From Candidatus Poribacteria bacterium (lineage in GTDB: Bacteria; Poribacteria; WGA-4E; PCPOR2b), in NCBI GenBank assembly GCA_965116925.1, contig OZ220744.1, positions 6,272,001 to 6,336,000 of the forward strand: a DNA stretch of 64,000 bases, read 5' to 3'. This document shows, in pieces, positions 23,996 to 62,218 of this stretch. Made by a program: the position numbers and the translations under genes. The notes beneath the pieces are model-generated. The model searched no databases. It was not told where the DNA came from and was given only the letters and a program-made list of their open reading frames with translations. The number at the start of each line of letters is the position of its first letter. The stretch's first letter is position 1.

Positions 23996-24575
23996 TCATG
24001 CTTCAGTTGCATCGTCCGCATCAAAGACATATTTCGGATTATATGAGACATCAAAATGCTTTAGCAATTCAAGATATTCCTCTTTGAATGTTTTGTGCGA
24101 ATGGTGTTTTTCTTGATTTTCGATGTAGGAGATGACATCTTTCAGCTGTGAGTGTGAATAGCTAAGCGCAGCGAATCCTTCTTGCCACATGAATTTTCCG
24201 ACAGTCCATCGTTTTCGGTTAATATAGTGGATCTCAGAATTAATGAAACACTCCAAATCGGCGCAGTTGGAAACAGCGCCTACCAAATATGGGGAGCGAA
24301 AGTGTCCGTTTATTTTTTGAATTTACTATAAATTGTGTTGCGTTCCTTTTAATGTCCCTAACCAGATCCGAGATAGCAATGTCGGGTGTGATGCCTACAA
24401 GGATATGGATATGATCGGGCATAGAATTGATTTGAATCAATTTTTGCTTTTTGTTGGTGATGATGCCAGTTATGTATTTGTGGGGTTCGGTTTTGTGTTT
24501 TTTGGGGATTAGGGGTTGTCGTCCTTTGACGGAAAAGACGATGTGTATGTAGAGTTGGGTGTATGTGTCTGCCAT
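23996..24575 (-). pseudogene. tnpA: IS200/IS605-type Y1 (HUH) transposase interrupted by a 106-bp insertion
   Basis: MADTYTQLYIHIVF, PDHIH (HUH), WQEGFAALSYS, YIENQEKHH; the two frames are joined by removing the insertion; flanked by inverted class-B repeats. Confidence 0.9.
24223..24330. mobile_element. 104-bp MITE with TA duplication and a Correia-like TATAGTGGAT end, carrying a class-C REP
   Basis: TA-TAGTGGAT...ATTTACTA-TA; removing it restores tnpA TQFINRKRW; internal GGCGCAGTTGGAAACAGCGCCTAC; related ends near 53628 (reverse) and 55084. Confidence 0.8.
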
Positions 24576-24687: not shown

Positions 24688-25356
24688 CTGGGGCTTTGGT
24701 TGCTAGGTGTATCGCCCTTCTATAGATATATCGCTCCTCTGGAGCGGAAGCAAAACCCGAAATCGTAGGGGCGAGGTTTCCTCGCCCATCGGGTTGGGGG
24801 ACCCAACCCCTACGGATTCAAACTCTCGTTTTCTCTGTGTTCTCCGCGCCTCTGCGGTGGTTTTGTTACGTTTCACGTTTCACACATCAGGTTTCAAAAC
24901 AGCTGTTCTATAAACATGTCGCCCCTCTGGGGCTTTGGTTGCTAGGTGTATCGCCTTTCTATAGATATATCGCTCCTCTGGAGCGGAAGCAAAACCCGAA
25001 ATCGTAGGGGCGAGGTTTCCTCGCCCATCGGGTTGGGGGACCCAACCCCTACGGATTCAAACTCTCGTTTTCTCTGTGTTCTCCGCGCCTCTGCGGTGGT
25101 TTTGTTACGTTTCACGTTTCACACATCAGGTTTCAAAACAGCTGTTCTATAAACATGTCGCCCCGCTGGGGCTTTGGTTGGTAGGTGTGTCGCCCTTCTA
25201 TAGACATATCGCTCCTCTGGAGCGGAAGCAAAACCCGAAATCGTAGGGGCGAGGTTTCCTCGCCCATCGGGTTGGGGGACCCAACCCCTACGGATTCAAA
25301 CTCTCGTTTTCTCTGTGTTCTCCGCGCCTCTGCGGTGGTTTTGTTACGTTTCACGC
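24688..25356 (+). repeat. About 2.8 tandem copies of a 239-bp composite REP unit
   Basis: Units start at 24688, 24927 and 25166; each contains class-B repeats, a class-A doublet, CTCTGCG and TTTCACG motifs. Confidence 0.9.
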
Positions 25357-26837: not shown

Positions 26838-27063
26838 AAAAGCGTTGGGTTTCGCTGTGGCTCAACCCAACCTACGGTTTACTCCCGTTTTCTACACATG
26901 TCGCCCCTCTGGGGCTTGGGTTATTTTGTTTATCGTGTTATTCTATAAACATGTCGCCCCTCTGGGGCTTTGGGTACTTGGATGTGCCTGTTCTATAAAC
27001 TTACGAATTGACAGGAAAACCGTTAAGGGCGTACCGCCGCCGACAACAAAGGAGAGGTATACG

Positions 27064-27273
27064 ATGAAACAGAACGAATTTCCTCCCGGTTGGGATGAAG
27101 AGCGCGTACGGAGCGTCATCGCGTACTACGATCAACAGACGGAGGATGAGGCTGTCGCTGAAGCTGAAGCCGCATTGCAGCATGAATCTAGCACACTGAT
27201 GAAAATCCCCACAGAATTGGTGCCCGCTGTACTTGAATTGATTGACAAGCACTTAGCCAATAATCAACCATAA
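27064..27273 (+). CDS. Small hypothetical protein (FPPGWDEERV), possibly antitoxin-like
   Basis: GGAGAGG RBS, 69 aa, flanked by REPs on both sides. Confidence 0.7.
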   Translation: MKQNEFPPGWDEERVRSVIAYYDQQTEDEAVAEAEAALQHESSTLMKIPTELVPAVLELIDKHLANNQP

Positions 27274-27645
27274 AAGAAATATGACTTATGCACTTCCGTA
27301 GGGAACGCAGATCTGCGTTCCCTACACGCAGGGGAACACCATTTCCACAGGCGAAGTACCTAGTTCCTATGTGTATATCGTGCTTCGGTTGCATCGCCCG
27401 ATGGGTTGGGGAACCCAACCCCTACGAATTCCACCTTCCGGTTTTCAGAAGATCGTCGATTTTGGAAAATCGCCCTACAATAGACATATCGCCGCGCTGG
27501 GGCTGTGTTGTACATCGGTTGATTGCCGTGTTGGGTTTCGCTGTGGCTCAACCCAACCTACGGTTTACGAGGGTTACGGCATACGGAGTATGCCTACTAC
27601 TTTACCCCTCCTCGTTTTCTGGTCTTCCCGTTTTCTCGTTTTCAC

Positions 27646-29046
27646 CTACTCTAGGTGCAGGAGCAGGTCCCGCTTTGTCAACGGTCGGTCGAGGTGCATC
27701 AGATAGATCTGGAACGTATCGCTGCGATCCGAAATAAACGCTAACAACCTCGCGTCGGGCGAAAACGCCGGCTGCATTGACGCACCGATCCCGTTTGTCA
27801 ACCGCCGTTCGTTCGATCCGTCCGCGTCCATCAGGTAGATCTCAATATCCCCGTCCCGCGCCGAGACAAAGGCGATGGTCTCCCCGTCCGACGAGATTAC
27901 CGGGCTATAGCAGTCGTGCGGGTTTGGGTTCAGATGCCTCTCATCGCTGCCGTCGATATTGATGCTATAGATCTGATGCCGTTCCGCTTGACCCTCCGCT
28001 AAGTCATCGGTCCGTGCCGAGACAAACGCAATCCGTTTCCCATCGGGGAAGAACATCGGGCTGCCGTCGTCCACTTCGTTATGCGTAATCTGCTGAGACG
28101 GAATCGTATCTGGATCAATCGCACCGAGATCCACGCCGCGGAGATCGAGGATATACAGTTCCAGATTGCCGGCACTGTTCGACTCGTAAGCGACCCGCTG
28201 CCGATCCGGCGATATCCCCAACGAGCGGACACCGAACCCGACGGGCATAATCTCCTGTGTGGTCTTACTATTAATATGTGTGGCATAGAAACCGGCATAG
28301 ATCGGCGTGGATCCGCTGCTCTGCAGCAGAATTTTCACCTGCCGCGAGGTCTGCGGTTCACGGCTGTAGATAACGTAGCTCGGATCGCTCAAGAACGCGG
28401 GCTCCCCCTCGTCGTAATCGGTAGTGTAGGTCACCCGCTTCCGCACGCGCCGATCCGCTATATCCATGATGAAAATCTCGCCGTTATCCAACCGATACGA
28501 CGCGAACACCAGCTGCGAGCCGTCCTGCGAGAATCGCGGCGAATAGTTGTCCTTCTTGCCACTTGTCAACTGCTCCACCCGATACGCATCGGTAATAAGT
28601 CCCGCCACCTGTTGTAGCACGGCGTTGTCCGATGTGGATTGGACAATCGCCCGCAGCTCACGGTATCCCGAATCCCGAATCCCCTGTTTCAGATATACCT
28701 TCGCCAACGCGAACCGTACCGTCGCTTTGTCTTCGGGGCGGGCGGTATACAGGTTGATCGCTGTCCTGTAATGACGGATCGCCTCGTCGTAGCTGCCTAA
28801 CCCCTCATACGCCTGACCTAGCAGAAACCGCGCCTTCGGGTTCCGATCGTCTACGTCGATAATCTTCTCCAACAGGTTAATCGCCTCCGGATGCATCCCC
28901 GATTGGATCAACGCCTCGCTCTGCCGGAGCGGTTCGTCCTTTCCGCTGCACCCGATCAGGCAACCGAGAAGCGCAATTAGCAGCGTGGCGCGTGAAACGT
29001 GATGCGTGAAACGTGATATGTCTGCGATATTATATTTGTCTTTCAT
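27646..29046 (-). CDS. Lipoprotein with TPR repeats and a TolB-like (PD40) beta-propeller
   Basis: Lipobox LIGC; TPR LGQAYEGLGSYDEAI; repeated (F/I)SPDG..IAF.S.R blades. Confidence 0.85.
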   Translation of the reverse strand: MKDKYNIADISRFTHHVSRATLLIALLGCLIGCSGKDEPLRQSEALIQSGMHPEAINLLEKIIDVDDRNPKARFLLGQAYEGLGSYDEAIRHYRTAINLYTARPEDKATVRFALAKVYLKQGIRDSGYRELRAIVQSTSDNAVLQQVAGLITDAYRVEQLTSGKKDNYSPRFSQDGSQLVFASYRLDNGEIFIMDIADRRVRKRVTYTTDYDEGEPAFLSDPSYVIYSREPQTSRQVKILLQSSGSTPIYAGFYATHINSKTTQEIMPVGFGVRSLGISPDRQRVAYESNSAGNLELYILDLRGVDLGAIDPDTIPSQQITHNEVDDGSPMFFPDGKRIAFVSARTDDLAEGQAERHQIYSINIDGSDERHLNPNPHDCYSPVISSDGETIAFVSARDGDIEIYLMDADGSNERRLTNGIGASMQPAFSPDARLLAFISDRSDTFQIYLMHLDRPLTKRDLLLHLE

Positions 29047-29274
29047 CTTTATTTCCCTTCATGTTTTTCGATTCGTCCTCGCATTCGTAGGGGCGGGGTT
29101 TCCCCGCCCTCTTTGTGGTACGGTTTGGGGGACCCAATCCCTACGAATATCACAACGGGTTGGGGAACCCAACCCCTACGAATATCACAACGGGTTGGGG
29201 AACCCAACCCCTACGAATATTAATGTGTCGCTGCACCTATCGTAGGGGCGAGGTTTCCTCGCCCTTGTTTTGGT

Positions 29275-29614
29275 TAGGACTTACGCACTTCAGTTTTAAG
29301 AGTAGAGACGGACGCAGATCTCGCAGATGAAGGTCGCATGAGCGAGGTTAAAAAGGTTACGTTTCGCCTGCGAAAATCAAATTTTCCCATTTTTCCCGCG
29401 CAAATGGGAAAATTGTCCCTATTTCAGGCTGAAACGTTTCGTCATGCCTGCCGATTGTATTACAAGCAGTTACAAACAATTACATTTTATGGTCGGGATC
29501 CTTGATGGTGTCCCTGCTGTAGTTGCTCGTTTCTTAACGGGCGTTGGAAGTTGTGTCCAACGGCGATGAATCGTCGAACTACAGGACTTTGAGCGTTCAA
29601 CTGCGTAAGTCCTA
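29275..29614. mobile_element. 340-bp MITE with 13-bp perfect TIR TAGGACTTACGCA and 5-bp TSD TTGGT
   Basis: TIRs at 29275-29287 and 29602-29614; TTGGT at 29270-29274 and 29615-29619; contains GTAG/CTAC hairpins near 29518-29582. Confidence 0.8.
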
Positions 29615-29716
29615 TTGGTATTGAATGGTTCGTAGGGGCGGGGTCACCTCGCCCATCTTATGATGTTGATAATTCGTAGGGGCGAGGTTCCCTCGCCCGT
29701 TTTGTGTGTCGCCCAT

Positions 29717-30285
29717 TTACCATCTGGAAGGATTGTTAGGATGCAATTGATCCAACTCCCATTGCATCGGGTTATCGGTAACATATTGGCGAATGCGCTG
29801 TAAATCTATATCATCTCGAATGACATGGTCGTAATAATTCCTTTGCCAAACGCGCGTCCCCGGCATATCACGATATTGATTGATGGATTTCGTGGATTGA
29901 TATTTGAAATATGCCACGACCTGTCCTAGTGTGGGCGAGGAAACCTCCTGTCCTAGTGTGGGCGAGGAAACCTCGCCCCTACGGTTCGGTAATGGAGGTG
30001 AGGGAGCCTCGCCCCTACGGTGTTTAATACGATAATTCCGTGTATGTGATTTGGCATAACAACACACATATCCAGTTCAACAGAAAAGAAATGTTGTGGA
30101 ATACGGTTCCAACATTCGACGACAGTTTTTCCTATTTCGCTCAATTGCATCCGTCCATCTACAATCTTCCCAAATAAGCATTTCTGATCCTGCACGCATA
30201 TAGTTACGAAATACCCACCAGTCTAACCATAATCATAGTCCCGTAAGCGCGTCGCACGGCGACGCGGTTGACTTTTCGGTTTCAT
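29717..30285 (-). pseudogene. REP-associated tyrosine transposase (RAYT/TnpA-REP) with a nonsense codon and a frameshift
   Basis: RLRDYDY, YFVTIC, VMPNHIHGII (HUH), WQRNYYDHVIR, YVTDNP; TAG at 30223-30225; two class-A REPs and a 27-bp duplication in the linker; flanked by inverted class-A REPs. Confidence 0.9.
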
Positions 30286-30497
30286 CAGCAAAACCTCCGT
30301 TGGAGTATTGTTTTCACATCCCTCATAGTTGGACGAAGCGAGAGATCTTGATTGCCGTATGGGCAAGGTTTCCTCACTCGTGTTGTGGTTTGGGTTGGGG
30401 GACCCAACCCCTACGGATTCAACGCCCATCTCTCTGCGTCTTTGTGTCCTCTGGTTTTCCCGTTTGCCTTTCTGCGGATCATTGTATCAGAAAACCG

Positions 30498-30526
30498 TTG
30501 ATAAATCAACCAAACCGTGATACCAT
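30498..30526 (+). promoter_or_regulatory. Sigma70-type promoter of cassette gene 1
   Basis: TTGATA-17 bp-TACCAT with extended TG. Confidence 0.6.
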
Positions 30527-30557
30527 ATAGTACCATTTCCGTCAGAGGAGACTCCCA

Positions 30558-31052
30558 ATGAAAACAATTCTCGTCCTTTCAATACTCTTTTGTGTGATCG
30601 CGTTGCCCGCTTTCGGTGAGCTAACGGATGCGGATCTTGACAAGATTCGGTTGATTGTTAAGGAGGAAGTCAAAGCGGAAATCGCCGGAGTCCGGCAGGA
30701 AATCGCCGGAGTCAGAAAGGAACTGAAAGCGGAAATCGCCGGAGTCCGGCAGGAAATCGCCGGAGTCGAACAGGAACTGAAAGCGGAGATTGCTGGCTCC
30801 GAGAAGCGGATAAAAGATTATATCGACGCTAGAATAGAGAGCGTCACAGTCGAAATAGGCAGTGTAGACAAACGTTTCTCAACATACAATTGGGTGATTT
30901 CCATCCTCATGCCGCTGATTGTCGCTGCGGTAGGTATTCCTACAGTCGTCATCGCGTGGCGGAGCGGAAGGGATCGATCGCTCGAAAGGCAAGTTGAAAC
31001 GCTCGCAAAGGAGATCGAAACGCTGAAGGAACAACGGATTGTAAATCCCTAA
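30558..31052 (+). CDS. Signal peptide + coiled-coil stalk + TM anchor protein (cassette 1)
   Basis: MKTILVL..PAFG, EIAGVRQ repeats, SEKRIKDYID, TM ISILMPLIVAAVGIPTVVIAW; GAGGAG RBS. Confidence 0.85.
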   Translation: MKTILVLSILFCVIALPAFGELTDADLDKIRLIVKEEVKAEIAGVRQEIAGVRKELKAEIAGVRQEIAGVEQELKAEIAGSEKRIKDYIDARIESVTVEIGSVDKRFSTYNWVISILMPLIVAAVGIPTVVIAWRSGRDRSLERQVETLAKEIETLKEQRIVNP

Positions 31053-31623
31053 CAGATGTCACCGGTAGGGTTGAGGGGTTGCTCCTAAAAAGTGAACCAC
31101 AATTCGGGTTGGGGGACCACAATTCGGGTTGGGTGACCCAACCCCTACGGATTGAATTTCCCTCGCTTCCCCGCTTCCTCCCGTCTTCCTGTCCCACATG
31201 TCGCCGTTCTATAAACATATCGCCCCGCAGGGGCTAAATCCTCGCCTCCTTGCTTTGTCGTTTTCCCGCGAATCTTATCTGCGTAATCCTTTAATCCGTG
31301 TTAATCGGCGATTCAGACATATTGGCAGATGGTGCTCCGCTGGAGCACGGAGATTTGGTCCTATCGCCCTCTATAGACATTATGCTCCGCTGGAGCGTGG
31401 GCAATTCCTATCCTCGCGCAACGGGTTGGGGGACCCAACCCCTACGGATTCAATCTCCTCGCTCCCTCCCGTCTTCCTGTTCCACATGTCGCCGTTCTAT
31501 AAACATATCGCCCCGCAGGGGCTAAATCCTCGCCTCCTCCCCCCCCTCGCTCCCTCGTCCCCTCTGCGTCCTCAGCGTCTCTGCGGTGTGCTTCTCTCGT
31601 TCCACGTTTCCCACAAAAATGTC

Positions 31624-31652
31624 TTGCCAACCCGACCCAACCGTGATACTAT
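31624..31652 (+). promoter_or_regulatory. Sigma70-type promoter of cassette gene 2
   Basis: TTGCCA-17 bp-TACTAT with extended TG. Confidence 0.65.
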
Positions 31653-31686
31653 ATCAGACCATTCTCCTCAAAAGAGGTGATCCACC

Positions 31687-32166
31687 ATGAAAGTCGTAAT
31701 CAGCCTATTCCTACTTCTACTGATAACCCCTGCGTTTGGCCAACTGACGAAGGAGGATATGCGCGCCATCATCAAAGAAGAGGTCCCCCCTATTGTCAAA
31801 GCGGAGATTGCCGCGTCGGAAAAACGGCTGAAGGAGTATATCGATCTCAAAATTGAGACGGTAAACGCCAGAATTGATGCTGTAGAGAAAAGTCTGAATG
31901 CCAGAATTGAGACGGTAAACACTAGAATTGATGTGTTAGAGAAAAGCATAGATGGTAAATTTGATGTCTTAGATACGAGGATGGATGATGTGGATAGCAG
32001 ATTTAATCGTATTTGGCTTGCCATCATCGCGCTGATAACCGCCGCCATTGCACTCCCCCAATTGATTATCATTTATGCGGAAAGGAAACGTGGGCGGGAG
32101 ATCCAGATGCTACTTGAACAATTGCGTGAAAAGACCGAAGGTCCGGAAACCGGGGCGAACCAATGA
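31687..32166 (+). CDS. Signal peptide + coiled-coil stalk + TM anchor protein (cassette 2)
   Basis: PAFG/QLTKEDMR, ASEKRLKEYIDLKI, TM IWLAIIALITAAIALPQLIII. Confidence 0.85.
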   Translation: MKVVISLFLLLLITPAFGQLTKEDMRAIIKEEVPPIVKAEIAASEKRLKEYIDLKIETVNARIDAVEKSLNARIETVNTRIDVLEKSIDGKFDVLDTRMDDVDSRFNRIWLAIIALITAAIALPQLIIIYAERKRGREIQMLLEQLREKTEGPETGANQ

Positions 32167-32771
32167 ACCGCCCCCCTACGGACATCATTGGTGTTGGGTT
32201 TCGCTGTGGCTCAACCCAACCTACGAAAATACCCCGTTTTCTCGCCTCCCCGCTGCCTCCCGTTTCGCTCCCCAGATGTCGCCCCGCTGGGGCTTGGGAG
32301 GATGGGGTATGTCGCCGTTCTATAAACATATCGCCCCGCAGGGGCTAAATCCTCGCCTCCTTGCTTCGTCGTTTTCCCGCGAATCTTATCTGCGTAATCC
32401 TTTAATCCGTGTTAATCGGCGATTCAGACATATTGGCAGATGGTGCTCCGCTGGAGCACGGAGATTTGGTCCTATCGCCCTCTATAGACATTACGCTCCG
32501 CTGGAGCGGGGTCAATTCCCGTCCTCGCGCAAGGGGTTGGGTGACCCAACCCCTACGGATTGAATCTCCTCGCTTCCTCGCTTCCTCCCGTTTTCCCGTC
32601 CCACATGTCGCCCCGCAGGGGCTTGGGAGGATGGGGTATGTCGCCCATCTATAAACATACCGCCCCGCTGGGGCTAAAAGCGTCCCCTTCCCCCGCTTCT
32701 TCCCGTTTTCCCGTCTTCCCGTCTTCCCCTCCCCGCCTTCCCGTTTTCCCCGCCCGTCGCCTGATTCAAAC

Positions 32772-33182
32772 TAGGGTCATTTAATTCTCCCCTATTATTG
32801 TCTGAATTATGGATAGACGCGGATTAACCGATTAGAAAGATAAAAGATGCTATCGACAGTTGGCGTAAGAACGCGCAATGAATTGCGCTACTACAAACGG
32901 TGGGGAGACCAGATGCCTCGCCTACGGGTTTGGGTCAGCCCGAACGGTCAAAAAATGGAAAACTAAATAGCCCTACCGTAGGGTCATTTAATTCTCCCCT
33001 ATTATTGTCTGAATTATGGATAGACGCGGATTAACAGATTAGAAAGATAAAAGATGCTATCGACAGTTGGCGTAAGAACGCGCAATGAATTGCGCTACTA
33101 CAAACGGTGGGGAGACCAGATGCCTCGCCTACGGGTTTGGGTCAGCCCGAACGGTCAAAAAATGGAAAACTAAATAGCCCTA
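32772..33182. mobile_element. Tandem dimer of a 204-bp MITE (family E) with 9-bp TSD
   Basis: Copies 32772-32975 and 32979-33182 (1 mismatch seen); ends TAGGGTCATTTAATT / AACTAAATAGCCCTA; GATTCAAAC on both flanks; internal CTAC-ended hairpins. Confidence 0.8.
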
Positions 33183-33200
33183 GATTCAAACAAAAAAGCC

Positions 33201-33229
33201 TTGCGAAATCACTGCAACCGTGATAACCT
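33201..33229 (+). promoter_or_regulatory. Sigma70-type promoter of cassette gene 3
   Basis: TTGCGA-17 bp-TAACCT, with the same ACCGTGA pre-10 context as the other cassettes. Confidence 0.5.
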
Positions 33230-33258
33230 ATAGAACCAAGAAAGGTAGGTGGGCCAAA

Positions 33259-33645
33259 ATGGATTTCGGTTCATGGTCTCCGTCACATACGATATTGGCG
33301 CTATTCATCGTCGCCGGTTTCATTGGGCAGGTGGCGGTCTTGTTCTATCGCGTGGGACAAACTGAGAAACGCTTGGCACGTAGTGAAGAGCGTGCCGAAA
33401 AGCGGGATGCGGAATTGCTCGCGCTGATCGATAAGCGAATTGGTGAAGTCAATCAGCGATTCGGTGAAGTCAATCAGCGAATTGACGGTTTGCGGTCTGA
33501 GATGAATCAGCGAATTGACGGCTTACGTACCGAGATGAATCAACGGTTATCCGATATGAACGCTGAAATCGCTGAAGTGCGCACGGAAATGCGGCAACTC
33601 AACCAGAACCATATCGATCATCTTAACAGGCATGATCAAGCGTGA
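33259..33645 (+). CDS. N-terminal TM + coiled-coil protein ending LNQNHIDHL (cassette 3)
   Basis: WSPSH-TM, NQRIDGLRSEM repeats; paralog at 57494. Confidence 0.8.
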   Translation: MDFGSWSPSHTILALFIVAGFIGQVAVLFYRVGQTEKRLARSEERAEKRDAELLALIDKRIGEVNQRFGEVNQRIDGLRSEMNQRIDGLRTEMNQRLSDMNAEIAEVRTEMRQLNQNHIDHLNRHDQA

Positions 33646-33843
33646 AAGTCTATAAACATCTCGCTATCTATAGACATGTTGCTCCGCTGGAGCGGGGTCA
33701 ATTCCGATCCTCTCGCAAAACGGGTTGGGGGACCCAACCCCTACGGATTGAATCTCCTCGCCTCCGCGCCTCCCTCGTCCCCTCTGCGTCCTCAGCGTCT
33801 CTGCGGTGTGCTTCTCTCGTTCCACGTTTCTCGCAAAAATGTC

Positions 33844-33872
33844 TTGCCAACCCGACCCAACCGTAATACTAT
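33844..33872 (+). promoter_or_regulatory. Sigma70-type promoter of cassette gene 4
   Basis: TTGCCA-17 bp-TACTAT, near-identical to 31624. Confidence 0.65.
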
Positions 33873-33906
33873 ATTAGACCATTCCCCTCAAAGGAGCCGG
33901 TCCGCC

Positions 33907-34320
33907 ATGAAAACCGTAACAACGCTATGCTTACTCCTCTTCCTAACTACCCCCGCATTTGCCCAACTGACGAAGGAGGATATACGCACCATCGTCAAAG
34001 AAGAGGTCACCGCGTCCGAAAAACGTACGCGGGAATATATCGATCTCAAAATTGATGGTGTGGAGAAAAGCCTGAATACCAGAATTAACGAATTAGATAA
34101 GAGCCTGAATGCGAGAATTAACGATATACGAATCATAATGATTGCGCTGATTGGACTCATCACCGCCGCCATTGCCATCCCTCAAATCGTTGCCGCCTAC
34201 AGAGACAGGGGTCAGAAAGAGATGGAAAGAGGTCAGAAGGCGATGCAATCCCAAATTGACCAGCTGCGCGAGCAAATTGAAGCAATGAACCAATCAATCA
34301 ATGAGCTAATGCATCAATGA
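33907..34320 (+). CDS. Signal peptide + coiled-coil stalk + TM anchor protein (cassette 4)
   Basis: AAGGAG RBS; PAFA/QLTKEDIR, ASEKRTREYIDLKI, TM, QIDQLREQIEAM. Confidence 0.85.
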   Translation: MKTVTTLCLLLFLTTPAFAQLTKEDIRTIVKEEVTASEKRTREYIDLKIDGVEKSLNTRINELDKSLNARINDIRIIMIALIGLITAAIAIPQIVAAYRDRGQKEMERGQKAMQSQIDQLREQIEAMNQSINELMHQ

Positions 34321-35376
34321 ATCTTCACACATCACGTATTACGTCGCACCTGTCGCCCCGCTGGAGCGGGGTCAATTCCGATCCTCCGGCAAAACGGGTT
34401 GGGGGACCCAACCCCTACGGATTGAATCCCTCTCGTTTTCTGTTTTTCTCACGCCTCACGTATCACTCCGGCACATGGTGCTCCGCTGGAGCACAATGCT
34501 CTGCCCCTCGCCTTCTATAGATATGTCGCTCCGCTGGAGCGGGGTCAATTCCTATCCTCGCGCAAGGGGTTGGGTGACCCAACCCCTACGGATTCATTCT
34601 CTACCCGCTTGGCAGTCGGGGCAAGATGCCCCTCCCACAGATGATGTGGCTGTCTTTCACGCATCACGTTTCACGCTGCCTTATCCGTGTTAATCTGTGA
34701 TTCAGACAATTAACACATGGTGCTCCGCTGGAGCACAATGTTCTGCCCCTTGCCTTCTATAGACATTACGCTCCGCTGGAGCGAAAAGCAATTCCTCCGG
34801 CAAAACGGGTTGGGTGACCCAACCCCTACGGATTGAATCTCTACCCGCTTGGCAGTCGGGGCAAGATGCCCCTCCCACAGATGATGTGGCTGTCTTTCAC
34901 GTATCACGTTTCACGCTGCCTTATCCGTGTAATCCTTTAATCCGTGTAAATCCGCGATTCAGACAATTAACACATGGTGCTCCGCTGGAGCACAATGCTC
35001 TGCCCTTCGCCTTCTATAGACATTACGCTCCTCTGGAGCGAAAAGCAATTCCTCCGGCAAAACGGGTTGGGTGACCCAACCCCTACGGATTGAATTTCCT
35101 CGCTTCCTCCCGTTTTCCCGTCCCACATGTCGCCCCGCTGGGGCTTTGGTTGGTAAGGTATGTCGCCCATCTATAAACATACCGCCCCGCTGGGGCTAAA
35201 AGTGTCCCGCTTCCCCCGCTAGCACATGGCACTCCGCTGGAGTGCGGTATTTTGCCTTATCGCCCGGCTATAGACATTACGCCCTTCTATAAACATTGCG
35301 CCCCTCTGGGGCTAAACGCCTCCTCGCCTCCTTGCCCCCTCGCTTCCTCGCTCCCTCGTTTTCCCGCAAAAATGGC

Positions 35377-35405
35377 TTGCCAAACCGACCCAATCGTGAT
35401 ACCAT
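35377..35405 (+). promoter_or_regulatory. Sigma70-type promoter of cassette gene 5
   Basis: TTGCCA-17 bp-TACCAT with extended TG. Confidence 0.6.
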
Positions 35406-35439
35406 ATCAGACCATTCCCCTCAAAGGAGCCGGTCCACC

Positions 35440-35838
35440 ATGAAAACCGTAACAACGCTATGCTTACTCCTCTTTCTAACTCCCCCCGCATTTGCCCAAC
35501 TGACGAAGGAGGATATACGCACCATCTTCAAAGAAGAGAACGCCGCGTCCGAAAAACGGCTGAAGGAGTATATCGATCTGAAAGTTGAAGCAATAAATGC
35601 CAGATTTGATGCGACAAATGGCAGAATTGATTCCCTAGACAAAAACCTGAATGGCAGAATGGACGATATACTGACCATAATGATCGCCCTGATTGCGTTG
35701 GTAACCGCTGCGATTGCCGTACCTCAAATCATCATTGCTTTCAAGGAAAAAGGTCAGAAAGAGATGGAAAGAAGTCAAAAGGAGATGCAATCCCAAATTG
35801 ACCAGCTCCGCAAAGCGCTTGAAGCGATGCAGCAATGA
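35440..35838 (+). CDS. Signal peptide + coiled-coil stalk + TM anchor protein (cassette 5)
   Basis: N-terminus near-identical to cassette 4; ASEKRLKEYIDLKV; TM IMIALIALVTAAIAVPQIII. Confidence 0.85.
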   Translation: MKTVTTLCLLLFLTPPAFAQLTKEDIRTIFKEENAASEKRLKEYIDLKVEAINARFDATNGRIDSLDKNLNGRMDDILTIMIALIALVTAAIAVPQIIIAFKEKGQKEMERSQKEMQSQIDQLRKALEAMQQ

Positions 35839-36444
35839 GATACCTCTACAACTCACAATCTAACAGATCGGGGTACAAAAGCCTCCTTTTATTGAAGCGG
35901 TGATTGAAACGGATTTACTGTAGTTGCCCGATTCATCGGGCGTCTGTTCCGAGACTAGGGTTAGGATTTGACCTGACAGTGCCCTGCCAAATCCCTGCCA
36001 TTTGGCACGGTTATGGTGCCATTTCAGTCAAAAACGGTTCATAAACAGGGCGTATATGTCAGGTCAAAACGCCGTTTGGGCGCACCTTTTCTTACGTGGT
36101 AAAAATCTACAAACGCTCTGAAGCTAGGGCCCATCGGGGTTCAGAGAGACATCGGCTAATGATGCCCCCCCGATGTGAGGTTAAATTTTTTTTTGGACCT
36201 GCCAGTGCCCTGCCAAATTGCCGAATCGTGCCGGTGAATCATTGAAACGGAGGTGTAGCAAATTGTAGGTCGAGATTCACATCTTGACAAACCGCTAAAA
36301 CCCCTGTAGGTCGAGATTCACATCTCGACGGAAGATCGTCGATTTTGGAAAATCGCCCTACAATCCCTTAATCCTCTTAATCCGCGATTCAGACAATTAA
36401 CGCATCCCGCTCCCCGGAGCCAAATGCACCCAATCAAAAAGATC

Positions 36445-36473
36445 TTGATAAATCAACCACACCGTGATAACAT
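36445..36473 (+). promoter_or_regulatory. Sigma70-type promoter of cassette gene 6
   Basis: TTGATA-17 bp-TAACAT, near-identical to 30498. Confidence 0.6.
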
Positions 36474-36506
36474 ATACCATCATTCCTCCAAAGGAGTCAG
36501 TCAACC

Positions 36507-36857
36507 ATGAGAATCATAGCAATCCTATCCCTACTCCTCTTGGCATCTCCTGCATTTGGCGAACTGACCAAAGAAGATATACGAATCATTGTCAGAGAAG
36601 AAATCGCCGCGTCCGAGAAGCGCACAAGGGAATATATGGACCTCAAAATTGATGCGACAAATGCCAGAATTGATGCGTTGAATAAAAGTTTTGATCGCGC
36701 ATGGGTCTTGATACTTGCGCTGATTGGACTAATAACAGCCGCAATTGCAATCCCTCAAATCATCATTGCGTTCAAAGAACGGGGTCAGAAGGAGATGCAA
36801 CTCCAAATTGACCAACTCCGCGAACAAATCGAAGCCATGCAAACGCCTCCATCATAA
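36507..36857 (+). CDS. Signal peptide + coiled-coil stalk + TM anchor protein (cassette 6)
   Basis: PAFG/ELTKEDIR, ASEKRTREYMDLKI, TM, QIDQLREQIEAM. Confidence 0.85.
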   Translation: MRIIAILSLLLLASPAFGELTKEDIRIIVREEIAASEKRTREYMDLKIDATNARIDALNKSFDRAWVLILALIGLITAAIAIPQIIIAFKERGQKEMQLQIDQLREQIEAMQTPPS

Positions 36858-37777
36858 TTGCAACTGCACTCCCATCGGGTTGGGAGAGTCACCCTCTACG
36901 GACGTTGGTGTTGGGTTTCGCTGTGGCTCTACCCCACCTACGAAACCGCTCCCGTTTTCTGTTTTTTTTGCGTCCTTGCGTTAAATACTGTATCACGCAT
37001 CACGTTTCACGCTGCCTTATCCGTGTTAATCCGCGATTCAGACAATTAACACATGGTGCTCCGCTGGAGCACAATGCTCTGCCCTTCGCCTTCTATAGAT
37101 ATGTCGCTCCGCTGGAGCGGGGTCAATTCCGATCCTCCGGCAAAACGGGTTGGGGGACCCAACCCCTACGGATTGAATCTCCTCGCTTCCTCCCGTTTTC
37201 CCGTCCTACATGTCGCCCCGCTGGGGCTTGGGTTGTTAGGGTATGTCGCCCATCTATAAACATATCGCCCCGCTGGGGCTAAAAGCGTCCCGTTTTCCAG
37301 TTTCCTATCCTATAAATCCTTGAATCCTGAAAATCCTGATTCAGACAATTATCCGCGTAATCCTTTAATCCGTGTAAATCCGCGATTCAGACAGATTGGC
37401 ACATGGTGCTCCGCTGGAGCACAATGCTTTGCCCCTCGCCCTCTATAGACATTGCGCTCCGCTGGAGCGAAAAGCAATTCCTCGCGCAACGGGTTGGGGG
37501 ACCCACCCCCTACGGACATCCTCTCGCAACGGGTTGGGGGACCCAACCCCTACGGATTGAATCTCCTCGCCTCCCCGTCTTCCCGTTTTCCCGTCTTCCC
37601 GTCCTCCCGTCTTCCCGCCCCCTCGCCTATTACTTTATTGAAAAAAACCTGAAACCGACCCGCCGTCCGCATCGTAGTATCTTCAGCATAATCGCTAGAG
37701 ATCTATCCGTAGCTTCCGTTTTTTTATGTGCAAATCCCAAATCCGGCGATTCGTGTGAATTTTTTCACAAAAAAGGC

Positions 37778-37806: not shown

Positions 37807-38033
37807 AGGGCGTCTTTAACTGATATGAGGGGAAATTACGTCAACAGTTTCGTGGTTCGCCGGGCGGCGAACCCCCTACCGACCGACCCAATTTCCACAG
37901 CTCCACTCCCAACGAAAGGATTCTTACTTTTATGATAGAACAAACAGACGCATCGAAAAGTGACGAGCGTCATGTTAAATATAGATGTAACACAAACCTT
38001 TTAACCCAAAAAAAGACAGGAGGAAAACATATA

Positions 38034-41000
38034 ATGGGTAACCAAGGTATGACAAATTGGAAATTAACCGCGCTTTTTGCCATTGCTTTAATGGTGATTG
38101 CGGGGATGTTCAGTAACGCGGCTATGGCACAAGCCGGTGCCGGAACGATTACGGTGACTGATGTTGCAGCGGATGGCACCGGCTCCATTCCTGGTGGCGC
38201 GAAGAACCACCAAATTAGTTTCACCTATACGCTCCCTGCAGCTAGTAGAGTCAGTCTGTCCGAGGGGGCGGTTCAAATTGAACTCCCGTCTGGGTGGTCG
38301 GTGGTAGGTGCTGCGGGTCTCTCTCTTCCCGAAGTTAGCGTAGGTACTGCCCGGTTCGTCGGCACTAGGAAGGTGGTGGTCACACTCCCTACATACACTG
38401 CTGATGATACTGATGCGACTACTGATGTGGAGGTGACAATCAGCTTTGGGGTAAACGCGCCTGCGACGCGTGGTTCTCACGACTTCAAAATTTCGTCCAA
38501 AAGGAGAACCGGCAGCTACAAACTATTAACAGCATTAGATCCGGATGGAATCATCAAAGTTAGGGTCGGTGCTAGGGATACAATTACTGTGGAAAGTGAT
38601 GAGACTGGTACTACTGGAAAGGCTTTCGCGGATGATGAGGTTGCGCTGACATTTACTTATACCGCTGATTCAGCGGCGGCAACAACCGTTAAAATTACGT
38701 TCCCATCGAGTTGGACCATTCCTTCTGATTTTTCACAGACGGACGTAACACGGAGTGGTCAGGTATTGGAATTTGCTTCCACTGTTACTCTCAGCGCGAT
38801 AACGGTAACGTCCCCGAAGGTTGCTGGCAAATATGAGTTCACAACGATGTCTAAGGCGGCGGGCGGAGAGTTTACCAAGTTGGAAGTTCAACCATCTATC
38901 GTGGTTGGCAATGTTGCGTCTGGCAAAGGAACGGTTGAGATCACGCCGGCGAATCCGGTCATAGGGGATACGGATGTAGTATTTACAGTTACCTATACCG
39001 CCGCAGGTCGGATGGTCACAGACGATGAAGGCCAAGCGGGTCTTCGGATTACATTTCCTTTTAACCTAGCCAACGATCAGATCGCCTCGGTGTCCGGCGG
39101 GGGCGCGAAGTTAGTTGCGGACGACGCTACCAATGCGACTGTCGACATCACGATTGCGCGTCTCAACAGTGGGGGGAAGGTCGTTCTTAAGACAAAGATG
39201 ATTGACATTCCTAGTACTGCTGCCGCTATTGCTTTGGAACCTACTAGTGCTGCCGAGACTGACAGGAAAAGTGGTTTTGGGGCGGTAGCGCAGACTTCTC
39301 TTACTCCAATCCCTGATGATGGTAGTGATCGCACTGCTCTAGACTACAGTGCTGGTGCTCTGTCTAATGCGGACTTGGGCGACGCGAAAGCGCAGATAAC
39401 GGGCGGATTGCTTCAGCCTGCAGAGGGTTCAGGAACGCTAAAAGCGGAGCCTGCGGTTTTGGAGAAGGGTCGGACGGGGCAGTCAATCAAGCTGACTTAT
39501 ACCGCAACGAGAAACGATCCCGGGGACTCAATAACGATTACGCTTCCTACGGGAGTTGCAAACATAAAGAAGGCTACGTCTGGGACTTCGGGTGTTACGC
39601 CTACCCATGCTGATGGCGGCGCGACGATTGTTTGGCCGGTGAGTAATCTTGTCAGAGGGAAGACGTTGATAGCTAATGTAAAGATGGATATACCGGACTC
39701 AACTGACGATTTGGTATTTTCATTTTCAACCACCAGGGGCGGAACTCCTACGGACGCCCCCGATTCATCTCAAGCTAAAATCACAATTGTGGGCAAAGCT
39801 GAGGATTTTGAGTTCGCAATAGTAGATTTAAGTACCGGTAACCCGATTGATGGCATGTTTCATGCCGCAAGTAAGCAGGAGATTGGGTTCAGGATTACTG
39901 CTGCGAATAGTACCATCCAGGAGGATGGCTTCATTAGAATTACAGTCCCTTCCCTCTGGTCTGGAGCTAGCACCGGGAATCGGGTGGCTCAGGTGAAAAT
40001 CTCTGATTTGACCGAGAAGGCTATCCGTGATGCCCTGCCAGCGAGGGCGCTCAGCGCATCTGGACGCACAATCACCGTTAAGATCGACGATGGCACGACG
40101 AAATATAGTTTGGCAAAAGGTAGTTCTATCACGGTTCAATACGGTGTGAAGGTTGACGATGCAAAAGATTATAGAGCTCTGATGCCAAATCAAGCCGGCA
40201 AGATGGTGGTTACGGCGAAAGTTAAAGCGTATAAGAGCTACAGCGAACACACTCTGGATTCAATAGAGGCAGAGATTACAAATGTTATGGACGGTTCCGG
40301 TGAGGCGACGATAAGGCCGACTACCGTCAGGGCAGGCACAGATGATAACAGGATTGAGGTGAAGTTTACGGCACAGGGATCGATGGGCGGCGGTGCGGTG
40401 CGCCTGACAATCCCCAGCGGTTGGGGCGAAATGCAAAACAGTGATGCTGCAGCCCTTAACCACGTTGCGGTGCGCTCACCTGTTAGGGGCGTTGAGCTCA
40501 ATGCTGATAGCTTCGTTGATGGTGTAGCCCTAATAAATCTGCCGGGTGGTCCGGACGATGACAATCCGAATCCGAATGCCTTTAGGAGAGGAAGCTACTT
40601 CACATTGATTTATGGCGGCGCGCCTGGAAACAAAGGTGCTGAAGCCCAAGACACTATCGGCGTTGCCGATTTCATAATTGAATCAATTGGTGATAGCAAT
40701 GGTACTTTTACTAATCTCACGAGCGATGTCAAAAGGCCAAGCGGCGACACTAAAGGTCTAGGGCGAATTTACAAAGAGGCTGCCGGTAAACTTAGGATTG
40801 ATGTGAAGAGTGGAGCGGACGGCAGCGGCACCGCGAAAGTTGAGATTGCTGGTACTTCAGCGGGTAAGATGCGATACGAAGGTGGTGACGAAAAGTATCA
40901 GGTCCATGCCGCTGATGATGTCTATCTCAAGTTTACGTACACCGCAAGTCAGGCGATAAAAATGGGACAGTTGAGACTCACTATTCCTACTGCTGATGGG

Positions 41001-44000
41001 TGGACTTCGCCGCAAGATCTCTCTACAGGCAGAATGGGTTATACCCGTATTGATGCGCCATCGGGTGCTACTGAACTGCCTGTAATGGCAAACAGCACTG
41101 TAACGGTGGATATTGTTGATCTCGCTCCCGATGAAGAGATTGTGATTCATTACGGATCGATGGGTAGCGGTATGGTCATGGCACCTCGTGATACCGGTCC
41201 GAGCCAATTCCATATTGCGATTAAGGGAACTGAGGAAGGAAGTCTCATAACCCTTGATGACCCGTTAGTAATAAACGTCAGGTCTCAAGCAAGTGGCGCA
41301 GGCACCGCTGCAATCCATGTTACGGGCGGTGACCTACATGCCGGTGATACGGATCGCGAGCTCCGAATCGTTTACACCGCTGCCGGTCAAATGCGGGGTG
41401 GTGAGGTTAAACTGACTATCCCCAAAGCATGGTCGGATCCAGAGGGTACGGTTGATACAGGGCATAACCTTGAGGTCACTCCAGCGGGAGCCCACGAGGA
41501 GGTCGTGTTTGATGCGGACACCGATGGCAACCACACTGTCGTTGCTAAAGATGTCGATTTGGCAGCCGGTGGTTCACTCACCTTCGTTTATAGTAATGTG
41601 GTGGTGCCGTCAGCAGAGTCAACTGTTGTACAGTACCAGTTTGAAGTTGCCGTCTTTGGTGGAGAACAGCCCTTTGATGGTGAGGATGGCACGATGGAAA
41701 TCGCTGATATGACCGATCTAGTCGTTGAGGTCGGACAGGCGAAAGCCGGTAGTGGTATGGTTATGGTATCTCCAACCGCCGTTGATGCGGATGGTGACGA
41801 AGTAACGCTGACCTTTACCTATACTGCGGCTGGAGATATTTTCTATCCTAGGGGACTCATGGTCGAAGTGCCTACAAGTTGGGAAGAACCCACAAGTGGA
41901 TCAGGTGCCTCTGACGAGGGTCGTTACGAAGTTAAACACATGCGCGGCACCACCGATGAGGGCGGTGTGATAGAACGTCCACCGGAGGGTCGGAAAATGG
42001 TCGCTCGCGTTACACAGGGTAAGTCGGTGAAGGCGGGCGATAAGATTATGTTCGTCTATCATGCTGACCCGCCCGTGAGCCCTGAAGTTTCCATGTTCAA
42101 GGTCTACTTTGATGGCGCAATGGTTGGAGATCCCGTTGAGGTGCTTGTCCAACCCGCTGGAGGAGCAACCCAGATAGCACTTAAAGACGTAGCCAACCTT
42201 TCAGCAGATGAGGACCCGCAGATGCCTGTTATGGTCACTGTGGAACTTCAAGCTACTGACGGTAATCCGGCTACAGCTGAGACTGCTGTTGAAGTGATGC
42301 TGGACGACGGTGCCAGTACGGGTATGTTCTCCATGACCGCCGATGGTGAGTATAGTGACACTGCGACGATAAACATCGCCGTCGGTATGTGGTCAGGGAT
42401 GGCGTACTACAAGAATTCAACGCTTGGTCCCCACACCATCACAGCGAGTGCGACTGGCTATGACAGTAAGATGACAACCGTTATGGTTTCCACCGATGAG
42501 CCAGGACTTACTCGTGTCACCTTTACGGTTGCCGATAGTGACGGTGTCGTAAAGACTGGTGACGCAAGCAATGCCGCGATGGAGAACGATATGGTAACCG
42601 TCACCGCAATGGCTAACCGCGATCAAACGGCGACCGTTATGATAGGGTCTCTCATGGCTCAGCGTGGGAATATGGAGGAGTCAACCCCCGGCACCTACAC
42701 CCGTGAGCATCCAGTGGCTGCAGGCAGTGCGGAAGGTTCGCATACGATCACCGTCTATATCGGAGGCGAAATGATGAGCGCGACCGATATGCTAATCGTT
42801 GATGATACCGATCCAACTGTAACCGTATCAGATATTGAGGGTCCTGTCGCAAATGGGGCTGAAGTGATGATCTCTGCTACGGTTAGTGACGCAAAAATGG
42901 ATTCATCAGGTGATCCCATAACAGTTTCAGGTGTCTCCTCTTCCTCTGTTATGGCAAATGTCTCCATGCTGGATAATCAAGCCACAGAGATGGTTAGATT
43001 GACCGATGATGATGGCGATGGTACATATATGGGTGCGCATACCATCAGCATGGAAAATACAGTGGCAAACGGAATGCATACAATCACCGTTACCGCGATG
43101 GACAACGCTGGCAACAGCGGAGAGGGTTCTACAACCGTTGAGTTGGAGAACGCTACGTCCTTCACATCGACGATATCGTCAGGCGTCAGTCTGTTCCACG
43201 TACCGTTAAATGATCCGAGGTTCGACACTATCGGTCAGCTTCGTGCGGAGATTGGAGACGCCAAGGTTAATTCCATTGTCGCCTATGATGCAGCAGGTAG
43301 ATTGGAACCCTCTAGCGATAATATAGCGATCGAGGGCGGTCGTGGTATCATCGTTTCACTAAACACCGAAGCTACAGTCACCTTTGAGGGTGAGGCGTGG
43401 GGCACTGATGGCACCGCCACGGTTTCCCTTGAGGCAGGAGATTCGAACCTCATCGGTTTGCCTCTCATGAATGACGACGTGAGCATGGTCAGCGATATCC
43501 TCGGTCTACACGCTGCTATTGAAGGGGTCTATCCTAACCTGACAGACTTCGTTGCAGCAGCCGGTGATACAGGCGATGGTCCTGTCGCAGGCGATGCCGC
43601 ATATTATGTGGTAGCAAGTAGGGATGCTGATGTTACCGTCACAGGTAGTGGTTGGAGCAACGACCCAGGGGCGGGCACAGCACCAATCGCGCTCTCTGGA
43701 TATACGGTGGAAAGCCAGACACCAGTGCTGTCTGTCTTCGGTTCCGTCGTTGACGAGACCACCGGCGTTGCAAAGGAAGGTTTCCGTGTCAAGGTCAAGA
43801 ACCTGACAACGAAGGCTTCCGTCAGCGAGGTTACTTCCGTTGAAACAGAAGACGGATACAGTGTGACCCTGCTTGACCTAGCGAACGCCAACGCAGCACG
43901 CGTCGGTGATGTGCTTGAGATTTCCGCTGATTCGCCGAATCCGATGATTGGTGTCGAGGCGGTACGTCATATCGTCACAGTGGATGATGTGAAGAACAGC

Positions 44001-52543: not shown

Positions 52544-52621
52544 CAACATTCACTATCTCCTCTGACTCGGAATCCAGCCGATTCCGGGTCGGAGGATTTG
52601 CCTTCATAAAGGAGGGAGACA

Positions 52622-54588: not shown

Positions 54589-54692
54589 GTTTCAAGAGTT
54601 CATTAGTAATGAGGTTTCAGAATTCTCCCCAGGCCCGGTAGGTGCGGTTTTCAACCGCACCGGATTCGTTCGACGAGGGAGAAAAACCAAAC

Positions 54693-62107: not shown

Positions 62108-62218
62108 CGTGTATGCCTCCTTTATCAGTTTTAGTTAGGTTGCTTTCAAACAGCCTTCCACCTTCTTTTGGTGCAGTTTTCCCGGTTAAATGGTGTTGTA
62201 TATTACAAAACAGATTCA

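Follow-up and report, generated by a model that had tools for sequence, protein, structure and literature searches.

The 64,000-nucleotide stretch of DNA analyzed here (the window) comes from Candidatus Poribacteria, a sponge symbiont, and contains what is probably a "gene accordion", a tandem array of paralogous genes reshaped by homologous recombination and coding for small inner-membrane proteins of a family found across the Poribacteria. As far as sequence comparison can tell, the locus combines the hallmarks of a tandem paralog array, namely head-to-tail homologous genes, copy-number variation between species, intragenic chimeras, and concerted evolution. The arrangement is of a known kind, and its cargo lies beside variable surface proteins and, elsewhere, beside restriction enzymes. 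The features of the region are as follows.

27646–29046, minus strand: TPR/PD40 (TolB-like) gene, conserved anchor upstream of the array slot
29083–30420, no strand assigned: cognate GTAG-type REPs of types A and B, partly in inverted pairs, flanking the RAYT
29717–30285, minus strand: RAYT-like HUH (Y1) nuclease pseudogene, as read from its translation
30498–30526, plus strand: promoter of gene 1, sigma-70-type, extended -10
30558–31052, plus strand: family A gene 1, LTDAD subtype, 164 aa
31053–31623, no strand assigned: spacer 1, a REP mosaic
31624–31652, plus strand: promoter of gene 2
31687–32166, plus strand: family A gene 2, LTKED subtype, 159 aa, long stalk of 7/11-residue repeats, weak KID match
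32772–33182, plus strand: two tandem copies of a 204-bp MITE that has terminal inverted repeats, the dimer flanked by a 9-bp target duplication, non-REP
33201–33229, plus strand: array-type promoter before the family B gene
33259–33645, plus strand: family B gene, 128 aa, N-terminal TM, C-terminal coiled coil
33844–33872, plus strand: promoter of gene 4
33907–34320, plus strand: family A gene 4, 137 aa, 97% identical to gene 5 in the 5' part and 76% in the 3' part
34321–35376, no strand assigned: spacer of composite REP modules in tandem repeat
35377–35405, plus strand: promoter of gene 5
35440–35838, plus strand: family A gene 5, 132 aa
35967–36258, no strand assigned: dispersed MITE-like element of about 290 bp, 17 near-full matches at 85–90% identity
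36445–36473, plus strand: promoter of gene 6
36507–36857, plus strand: family A gene 6, 116 aa, shortest stalk of the array
36858–37625, no strand assigned: terminal REP mosaic and simple repeats
37932–53545, plus strand: genes for two giant proteins (C-terminal sorting domains of T9SS type) and for a PorV/PorQ-family protein, conserved anchor downstream of the array

The array consists of six co-oriented plus-strand ORFs (starting at 30558, 31687, 33259, 33907, 35440, and 36507). Five are paralogs (family A), and 33259 represents a separate family (family B); ORFs and translations agree with the initial annotation in this. Family A proteins begin with a hydrophobic leader ending in AF[AG], followed by an (E/Q)LT motif, SEKR..[DE]Y.D, a variable stalk, one TM, and a short tail. 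The motifs reported earlier were recovered, with LTKED in four window paralogs and LTDAD in one. The family B protein lacks the leader and has six further copies dispersed in the genome. All six genes are preceded by the sigma-70-type pattern TTG(C/A)nA-17 nt-TAnn(A/C)T, with CGTGA just 5' of the -10 element in five promoters and CGTAA in one, in line with the proposal that each gene has a related promoter of its own. An array-specific promoter type was ruled out, as the identical extended -10 pattern occurs at 51 other genome sites, 28 of them no more than 250 nt from a gene start. One relative's gene is covered by the RNA run X7, a coverage that is not proof of transcription.

When loci are compared between species, the array slot holds 1–10 paralogs in differing order in all 12 syntenic loci, which upholds the view of a variable, amplified array of self-promoted membrane coiled-coil genes. 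In each of these loci, the array lies directly upstream of a giant surface protein. The N-terminal parts of the giant T9SS-type proteins are highly variable, and the array is located in a variable surface-protein island. Nearby slots are occupied by family A, family B, a TA module, or an IS200-like gene, depending on the species. The closest relative (G005) has eight copies and the freshest duplications and no RAYT; one duplication of 956 nt (99.6% identical) starts inside the stalk. Neither a Y1 gene in 60 kb nor a GTAG hairpin in the seven spacers was found in this relative.

Genes 4 and 5 are one of ten within-genome gene pairs with an identity of ≥97% toward one end but ≤80% toward the other, and their homology begins at the promoter, not at a REP. 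Likewise, 4 of 16 LTDAD heads carry the tail of the other subtype. A tree test of 5' versus 3' parts rejects congruence, but short alignments overstate this result, and we relied on the explicit gene pairs instead. Judged from these pairs, the exchange of gene halves takes place within coding sequences. Stalks differ in length by complete units of 7 or 11 residues; of 167 stalk units, 66 are heptads and 89 are hendecads. The dN/dS values of 0.01–0.25 in the conserved segments point to purifying selection there.

It had been suggested that whole promoter-plus-gene units move with REP ends. Not one of 32 near-identical tracts is such a unit running from REP to REP. Among the 64 tract ends, 24 lie inside genes, 4 lie at REP hairpins (under a narrow definition by which hairpins make up 12% of the area), and 33 fall in other spacer DNA, the proportion expected from the spacer share of the area (50%). 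The suggestion is thus not borne out by the tracts. Joints listed from public-run contigs are short repeat-to-repeat joins with sides of 21–31 nt and are uninformative on excision or order.

The spacers do recombine with each other, as had been proposed: for 16 of 45 array spacers, a long block recurs in another spacer of that genome, whereas for none of the 45 does one recur in the array of a different genome. By this comparison, spacers are homogenized within each genome. Within the window, 31198–31408 matches 32309–32519 with 98% identity over 211 nt, a putative spacer-only conversion tract that confirms the reported reuse of blocks. The best match lies inside the array for five of the six spacers, compared with a best match within 10 kb for 6 of 333 other repeat-rich intergenic regions.

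However, the spacers fall short of being "almost wholly" REP. By BLAST, 0.42–0.79 of each spacer is covered by genome-wide repeats, and this cover includes the MITE dimer (the 204-bp unit has 17 near-full genome matches, several with target duplications) and the 290-bp dispersed element. BLAST cover replaced a k-mer measure that undercounts divergent REPs and by which the six spacers rank 27th among 4869 runs of six intergenic regions. The repeat density of the region is in the top 1.2% of 7.1-kb windows. The uniform REP orientation noted before holds for the three main modules (10/10, 7/7, and 7/7) but not for a few REPs at 35.9–36.3 kb, and it is not array-specific, extending outside the array to 24.7–27.6 kb. 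Replichores could not be located by GC skew. Array REPs are single modules within composite blocks, and inverted doublets are typical elsewhere in this genome.

REP mosaics occupy intergenic DNA throughout the genome. The expectation that paralogs are REP-flanked more than other genes failed: across the genus, array spacers contain 2.38 GTAG hairpins per kb versus 2.30 in control intergenic regions, although pooled repeat cover is higher in the spacers (0.47 versus 0.31). Family copies are mostly dispersed and REP-free; of 52 dispersed members, 36 have no hairpin on either side, and 4 are hairpin-flanked on both sides. Tract ends in genes, a hairpin density like that of controls, and hairpin-free dispersed copies therefore largely bring about two of the three outcomes that the initial annotation had named as refuting it, namely breakpoints unrelated to REPs and a REP density no higher than in other intergenic regions. 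In REP-rich genomes, finding dense REPs next to a RAYT is weak evidence of cassette mobility.

The RAYT itself, described at first as a gene beside the array, is a pseudogene. It retains the HIH motif, the WQRNYYDH...Y motif, and QRIRQY in translation (HUH and catalytic Tyr) but is disrupted by an in-frame TAG (30223–30225), a frameshift near 29940–30010, and a REP-coded insertion with a 27-nt tandem duplication (29920–29973). These lesions are not an assembly error, because contigs from two public runs, each belonging to a different study, are identical to the window across them. The fragment scores 38–39.5 bits against NF047646 (cut-off 80), with a weak PF01797 match, and its intact orthologue in another genome (G009) scores 61.6 bits against the same cut-off. 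Type A and B REPs (138 and 149 copies in the genome) occur in both RAYT flanks, and the array lies within the genome's largest cluster of RAYT-cognate REPs (18/138). Both HUH genes whose REPs build the array spacers are broken, and the genome contains no intact close copy of them. The four other intact Y1 genes of the genome have different flanking repeats. A RAYT occupies the array site in 2 of 12 syntenic loci.

In the gene accordion that we favor, the duplicated unit would be promoter plus gene. Host homologous recombination would then cause unequal crossover, deletion, and gene conversion via any available homology, mostly that of the promoter/5' end, the stalk repeats, and the 3' end, and sometimes that of REP blocks. 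As elsewhere in intergenic DNA, REPs would have been seeded locally, here by the two HUH genes that are now broken, and carried as passengers, and the RAYT would not be needed. The higher repeat cover of the array spacers, the largest cognate-REP cluster, and the position of gene 31687 between near-identical direct REP blocks count against this reading, as does the presence, in most relatives, of IS200-like or RAYT genes no more than about 15 kb from the array. The initial annotation had instead proposed an integrase-free cassette array, in which the RAYT, an HUH nuclease, cuts at REPs and moves whole promoter-plus-gene cassettes. Self-contained promoters, species-specific homogenized spacers that recall attC homogenization, the 98% identical direct blocks around gene 31687, the occupants of nearby slots that change between species, and the intact Y1 genes elsewhere in the genome would all fit such a process. 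We nevertheless consider it very unlikely. The HUH genes of the spacer REPs are broken without an intact close copy, the intact Y1 genes have other repeats at their flanks, and no tract is a whole REP-to-REP unit. The closest relative amplifies without GTAG hairpins, whereas G009 has an intact RAYT yet one type-A REP in seven spacers. Furthermore, 6 of 57 spacers are <100 nt (six spacers in relatives measure just 41–80 nt), genes 4 and 5 share homology from the promoter onward and not from a REP, and breakpoints are not enriched at REP cut sites in a comparison between species, which could miss within-species REP-end events.

Alternatively, in REP-rich lineages like this one, unequal crossover of the RecA type could rely mainly on REP mosaics for homology, and the mosaics would then speed turnover without a transposase. 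The preference of spacers for matches inside their own array, the direct orientation of the modules, and the 33 of 64 tract ends in spacer DNA beyond the narrow hairpin definition argue for this model. Those 33 ends, however, only equal the spacer share of the area, the REP-poor arrays of G005 and G021 turn over too, and REPs were not preferred at Escherichia coli amplification junctions (PMC1428787); we therefore regard the model as unlikely. A further reading takes HUH-nicked REP mosaics as recombination joints, at which promoter-plus-gene units of a phylum-wide anti-phage membrane family would be duplicated, change order, and shift among neighboring slots with no integrase involved; the nuclease would later be lost and ordinary recombination would blur the ends. 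It retains a very small probability because the comparisons are between species, spacers are homogenized per genome, and Y1 and small genes change slots.

The gene accordion resembles the csa1/lpl "gene accordions" of Staphylococcus aureus, which are likewise tandem envelope-protein paralogs with copy-number variation and chimeras formed by recombination between homologous genes (PMC7360770). In contrast to those lipoproteins, the Poribacteria proteins are single-TM coiled coils, nearly every copy is self-promoted, the spacers are long repeat mosaics, and the host is a sponge symbiont. As at REPtron/RAYT-REPIN loci (PMC5581495), a Y1 HUH gene lies between numerous GTAG REPs, with the largest local cognate-REP cluster. 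Here, by comparison, the gene is a pseudogene, REPs of the array sit in composite blocks as single modules, and there is no sign of gene carriage. An integron integrase was not found in the genome (best TIGR02249 score 49 bits versus a cut-off of 265). Sedentary chromosomal integron arrays have co-oriented small genes, species-specific repeated spacers, and variable order, all of which recur in the Poribacteria array. The lack of an integrase, the paralogy of the genes, their own promoters, and crossovers inside genes set it apart from an integron cassette array.

Borrelia Bdr proteins (KID repeat, PF02524) are likewise multi-copy inner-membrane proteins with length-variable 11-residue repeats and are described as unique to Borrelia and plasmid-borne (PMC4370689). 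The likeness to Bdr noted earlier is partial: KID matched RIDGVEKSLNA-type repeats at E ≤ 0.01 in 25 of the 80 family members compared, the strongest at 1.1e-11, the window proteins reached only E 0.079, and the host is not Borrelia. Bdr proteins are not known to have a signal peptide, whereas the Poribacteria proteins have a predicted N-terminal one, by which the stalk would come to lie in the periplasm, and their TM is followed by a tail. As in DUF1640/CCDC90-like proteins (PF07798; PMC4786415), a TK[ED]D-like motif precedes a coiled-coil stalk, the membrane anchor is C-terminal, and a trimer is plausible. This part of the earlier comparison holds; by the same source, the consensus [aliphatic]ATK[polar][DE] and the head domain do not, since the Poribacteria motif is (E/Q)LTKED directly after the leader. 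Membership was rejected, as the beta-layer motif is absent, the model is helical there, PF07798 matches are weak (7 of 80 members, best E 1.1e-4), and a PDB sequence search returned a designed coiled coil only and no natural relative.

Family A was found in 127 of 151 genomes of the phylum and forms 1876 clusters at 90% identity among 8000 candidates scored. It was not found in several near-complete Poribacteria genomes (genus g5, 0/4), and the other main family has 1–18 copies scattered among unrelated genes. Foldseek with the single-helix model gave no match, PADLOC and PHROG searches gave scattered coiled-coil matches and no convincing family, and none of 10 pattern matches in viral contigs was confirmed as a relative. 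Ten distant proteins looked up outside the phylum were all without names. The family appears undescribed, as well as large and fast-evolving, with heads, stalks, and tails mixed and matched.

The protein of gene 4 was used for modeling, and its monomer is modeled as a continuous helix, also at (E/Q)LTKED. Family A proteins are predicted to trimerize, with a model score of 0.76 versus 0.00 for the best control, pLDDT ≥73, and agreement between runs in ≥70% of contacts; 20 of 30 solved pairs attained the mark applied, as did 1 of 23 single chains. After export and presumed cleavage of the signal peptide, the proteins would form a parallel coiled-coil trimer of about 7–14 nm in the periplasm, with one TM anchor and a short cytoplasmic tail. 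They might be structural envelope struts or helpers of the neighboring T9SS-type surface proteins, with stalk length setting the periplasmic distance. The constant position upstream of the giant protein, purifying selection, the helix and trimer models, and strong consensus promoters are consistent with this role, but absence from near-complete genomes and scattered copies among unrelated genes are unlike a core structural protein, and we consider it rather doubtful. The likeliest role, itself tentative, is that of an accessory barrier or decoy in the periplasm that acts against phage, selected for dosage and stalk-length range. If phage entry were blocked in this way, it would be a new envelope-level defense in a dominant sponge symbiont. 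Among 40 hand-picked dispersed loci, 10 adjoin a restriction-modification gene and one adjoins cas6; 7 of the 10 restriction-linked loci belong to one subfamily.

The host genome is a single contig of 6.47 Mb; NCBI assigns a homolog to Candidatus Poribacteria, and most of the nearest Atlas clusters are likewise poribacterial. All six co-oriented small open reading frames named in the initial annotation are present beside a RAYT-like gene (start positions are given for the six genes):

29717–30285, − strand: RAYT-like gene
30558, + strand: gene 1, family A
31687, + strand: gene 2, family A
33259, + strand: gene 3, family B
33907, + strand: gene 4, family A
35440, + strand: gene 5, family A
36507, + strand: gene 6, family A

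The five proposed paralogs indeed share one layout, that is, a hydrophobic leader ending in AF(A/G), an (E/Q)LT motif, SEKR..Y.D, a variable stalk, one transmembrane segment (TM), and a short tail. Gene 33259 represents the separate family B: its TM is N-terminal, and the genome holds six other, dispersed copies. A related promoter for each gene was likewise confirmed (TTG(C/A)nA-17-TAnn(A/C)T before 6/6 genes). Across the genus, this promoter type lies within 100 nt of 69 of 76 family A genes, and five of the seven genes without it follow another copy by 41–80 nt. The promoter style is generic, with 51 further sites genome-wide, 28 of them just before a gene. The family B gene of the array (33201–33645) carries an array-type promoter and its paralog at 57494–57904 does not; four relatives have a family A gene instead of family B in the 57494 slot.

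The array is real and dynamic, and its mechanism is probably ordinary recombination. A profile of the five family A proteins found matches in 32 of 41 genomes, and 20–60 kb around the best match were compared for 20 of the 31 other matching genomes. Differences in copy number and order between species were evident at the 12 loci spanning both anchors (a TPR/PD40 gene upstream and a giant T9SS-type protein gene downstream), which hold 1–10 family A genes in differing subtype order; in four of them, a family B gene occupies the slot at varying positions. The closest relative by neighboring genes (G005) has eight family A copies and a 956-nt duplication of 99.6% identity that starts inside a stalk. 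Its array spacers are simple repeats; GTAG hairpins are absent from all seven, and a Y1 gene is absent from 60 kb of this genome. Within the species, contigs from two public sequencing runs (X1 and X2) are identical over four array genes, so that no hypervariability is visible at this level; gene order is unreadable from these contigs.

The initial annotation proposed that self-contained promoter-plus-gene units are amplified and shuffled through REP ends, beside a RAYT. We compiled 32 tracts (≥200 nt, ≥96% identity) from 13 arrays. Contrary to the proposal, 4 of 64 tract ends fall at REP hairpins, which make up 12% of the area under a narrow hairpin definition; the others lie in genes (24/64), promoters (3/64), and other spacer DNA (33/64), which cover 31, 6, and 50% of the area, respectively, counts to be read with the tracts being non-independent and stalk slippage ending tracts, too. 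A single tract of the 32 holds a whole promoter and gene, with its start inside the preceding gene. Nine within-genome pairs, together with 33907/35440 (97%/76%), are near-identical at one end and ≤80% identical at the other, and 4 of 16 LTDAD-subtype heads carry the tail of the other subtype. Homology between genes 4 and 5 begins ∼80 nt upstream, at the promoter. At two dispersed loci (L075:2725–4905 and L090:3019–5254), tandem duplications include, besides the copies, the end of proS or the beginning of the following gene, and the junctions of both are non-REP.

The RAYT gene adjoining the array keeps its HUH-type motifs, yet is dead: its reading frame is interrupted by a TAG and a frameshift, and 27 nt are duplicated. 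Contigs from X1 and X2 (two studies, one of which may be the assembly source) cover 30094–30421 and 29674–30110 with zero differences, and no intact close copy was found in the genome. The flanks of the gene carry its REPs (types A and B), with one cluster around it holding 18 of the 138 type-A REPs of the genome. A second spacer module (GCTCCGCTGGAGC-like) is found on the flanks of an IS200-like Y1 gene (23996–24575), into which a TA-ended MITE of 108 bp is inserted (24222–24329). In the vicinity of the THUMP and TPR genes, orthologues of this Y1 gene occupy intergenic slots that differ among relatives, suggesting local hopping. Four intact Y1 genes elsewhere in the genome have flanking repeats that differ from the array REPs. 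The window RAYT is present at the array site in 2 of 12 syntenic loci; in the related genome G009 it is intact, yet only one type-A REP occurs in seven array spacers. A 5′ fragment of another RAYT family lies at 54654–54839, and in G007, G015, and G018 its intact orthologues reside between the genes for the two giant surface proteins.

The spacers had been described as almost wholly REP, which overstates their content: genome-wide repeats cover 0.42–0.79 of the six spacers, and 8–37% of intergenic regions of similar length (delimited with our own rough calls of 5153 genes) reach equal cover. Eight regions around housekeeping genes at 16.7–27.6 kb show a cover of 0.44–0.80, and nine other intergenic regions of the window 0–0.18. 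Because similar cover is found elsewhere in genome and window, the array spacers are above average but not unique, although unusually long (rank 27/4869). Across the genus (57 spacers, those >1600 nt dropped and 51 of ≥100 nt counted, versus 120 control regions), array spacers exceed controls in total repeat cover (0.47 versus 0.31), but their density of GTAG hairpins is similar (2.38 versus 2.30 per kb). Non-REP content includes a 290-bp dispersed element and a MITE dimer between target duplications of 9 bp. In the latter (32772–33182), two 204-bp MITE units stand in tandem; target duplications of this MITE measure 9–10 bp, and its 99% identity to distant copies points to recent activity. Outside the array, at 24700–25350, a composite REP unit of 239 bp occurs three times in tandem.

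The distinctive trait of the array spacers is local sharing, not repeat content. For five of six spacers the best match lies inside the array, and 6 of 333 other repeat-rich regions have theirs within 10 kb. Blocks of ≥150 nt are common to spacers of the same array in 16 of 45 cases and to another genome's array in 0 of 45; for control regions, such sharing occurs in 4 of 105 cases inside one genome and in 28 of 105 from one genome to another. The array spacers evolve in concert. Reuse of the long block cited in the initial annotation is real; the block is a spacer-only conversion tract.

The findings are best explained by a gene accordion of the S. aureus csa1/lpl kind (PMC7360770). Promoter plus gene would be the duplicated unit, unequal crossover, gene conversion, and stalk slippage would reshape the array, and REPs would be passengers and an occasional source of homology. 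Speaking against this accordion, most relatives carry an IS200-like or other RAYT gene close to the array, in shifting slots. REP-ended mobile cassettes did not pass the tests on the array, and an integron cassette array was rejected for this locus. Dispersed paralogs are mostly not REP-flanked: among 52 copies at 40 hand-picked loci, 36 have no flanking GTAG hairpin at all, and 4 are flanked by one on both sides.

Family A appears to be an undescribed protein family, present in 127 of 151 sampled genomes of the phylum (1–18 matches each); where five genomes of the phylum's other main family were examined, most of its members were dispersed. Searches against Pfam, NCBIfam, PADLOC, and PHROG gave it no name, and no description of it or the array was found in the literature searched, a scope outside which most subscription papers fell. 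The best specific profile signal is the Borrelia KID repeat. In build, family A resembles Bdr (PMC4370689) and DUF1640 (PMC4786415), but membership tests placed it in neither. The stalks consist of 7- and 11-residue units (17–65 residues in total), and conserved segments show dN/dS of 0.01–0.25 (59 genes). Leader cleavage and an N-out topology are predicted from sequence, and the 47–91 residues before the TM would span ∼7–14 nm. AlphaFold models the single chain as one long helix (pLDDT 89). The three-copy model scored 0.76 (best control, 0.00) and its contacts are in register, three being the only copy number tried and coiled coils possibly passing by likeness; its runs agreed in ≥70% of contacts with pLDDT ≥73. 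Among reference cases, 20 of 30 solved pairs attained the pass mark, as did 1 of 23 single chains.

A restriction-modification gene adjoins 10 of the 40 hand-picked dispersed loci and cas6 one (73 of 86 neighbors scanned); 7 of the 10 belong to a single Eco57I-type-linked subfamily, and many other dispersed loci lie among housekeeping genes. Patchy presence, variable copy number, and neighboring genes lead us to prefer, tentatively and by a narrow margin, an accessory anti-phage role over a structural role, each being less likely than not. The Eco57I-linked subfamily (L094, L095, L097, L099, L101, L102, and L103) lies 0–23 nt behind a ∼1000-amino acid Eco57I-type restriction-modification gene, in four genomes and 1–3 tandem copies without REPs. 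At L058 and L059 (two genomes of another family), a lone family A gene with ∼60% identity to the window's genus sits just 3′ of a tRNA-like 3′ end, a neighbor hinting at horizontal acquisition.

Upstream of the array, an orphan antitoxin-like gene (27000–27340, 70 amino acids) has lost its toxin-like gene and promoter, which are kept in G005, G010, and G018; one end of the deletion is at a REP module with 96–98% identity between species, which in G018 is found on the opposite side of THUMP. Downstream, 37932–53545 holds a PorV/PorQ-family gene and the genes for two giant proteins of T9SS type. The N-terminal parts of the giant proteins are 30–50% identical between species, versus 85–99% for their neighbors, and several relatives carry extra T9SS-type genes upstream of the array; together these form a hypervariable surface island. 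Tandem Kelch-like paralogs at 61031–63915, with at least six copies in relatives, are a second gene accordion of the region.
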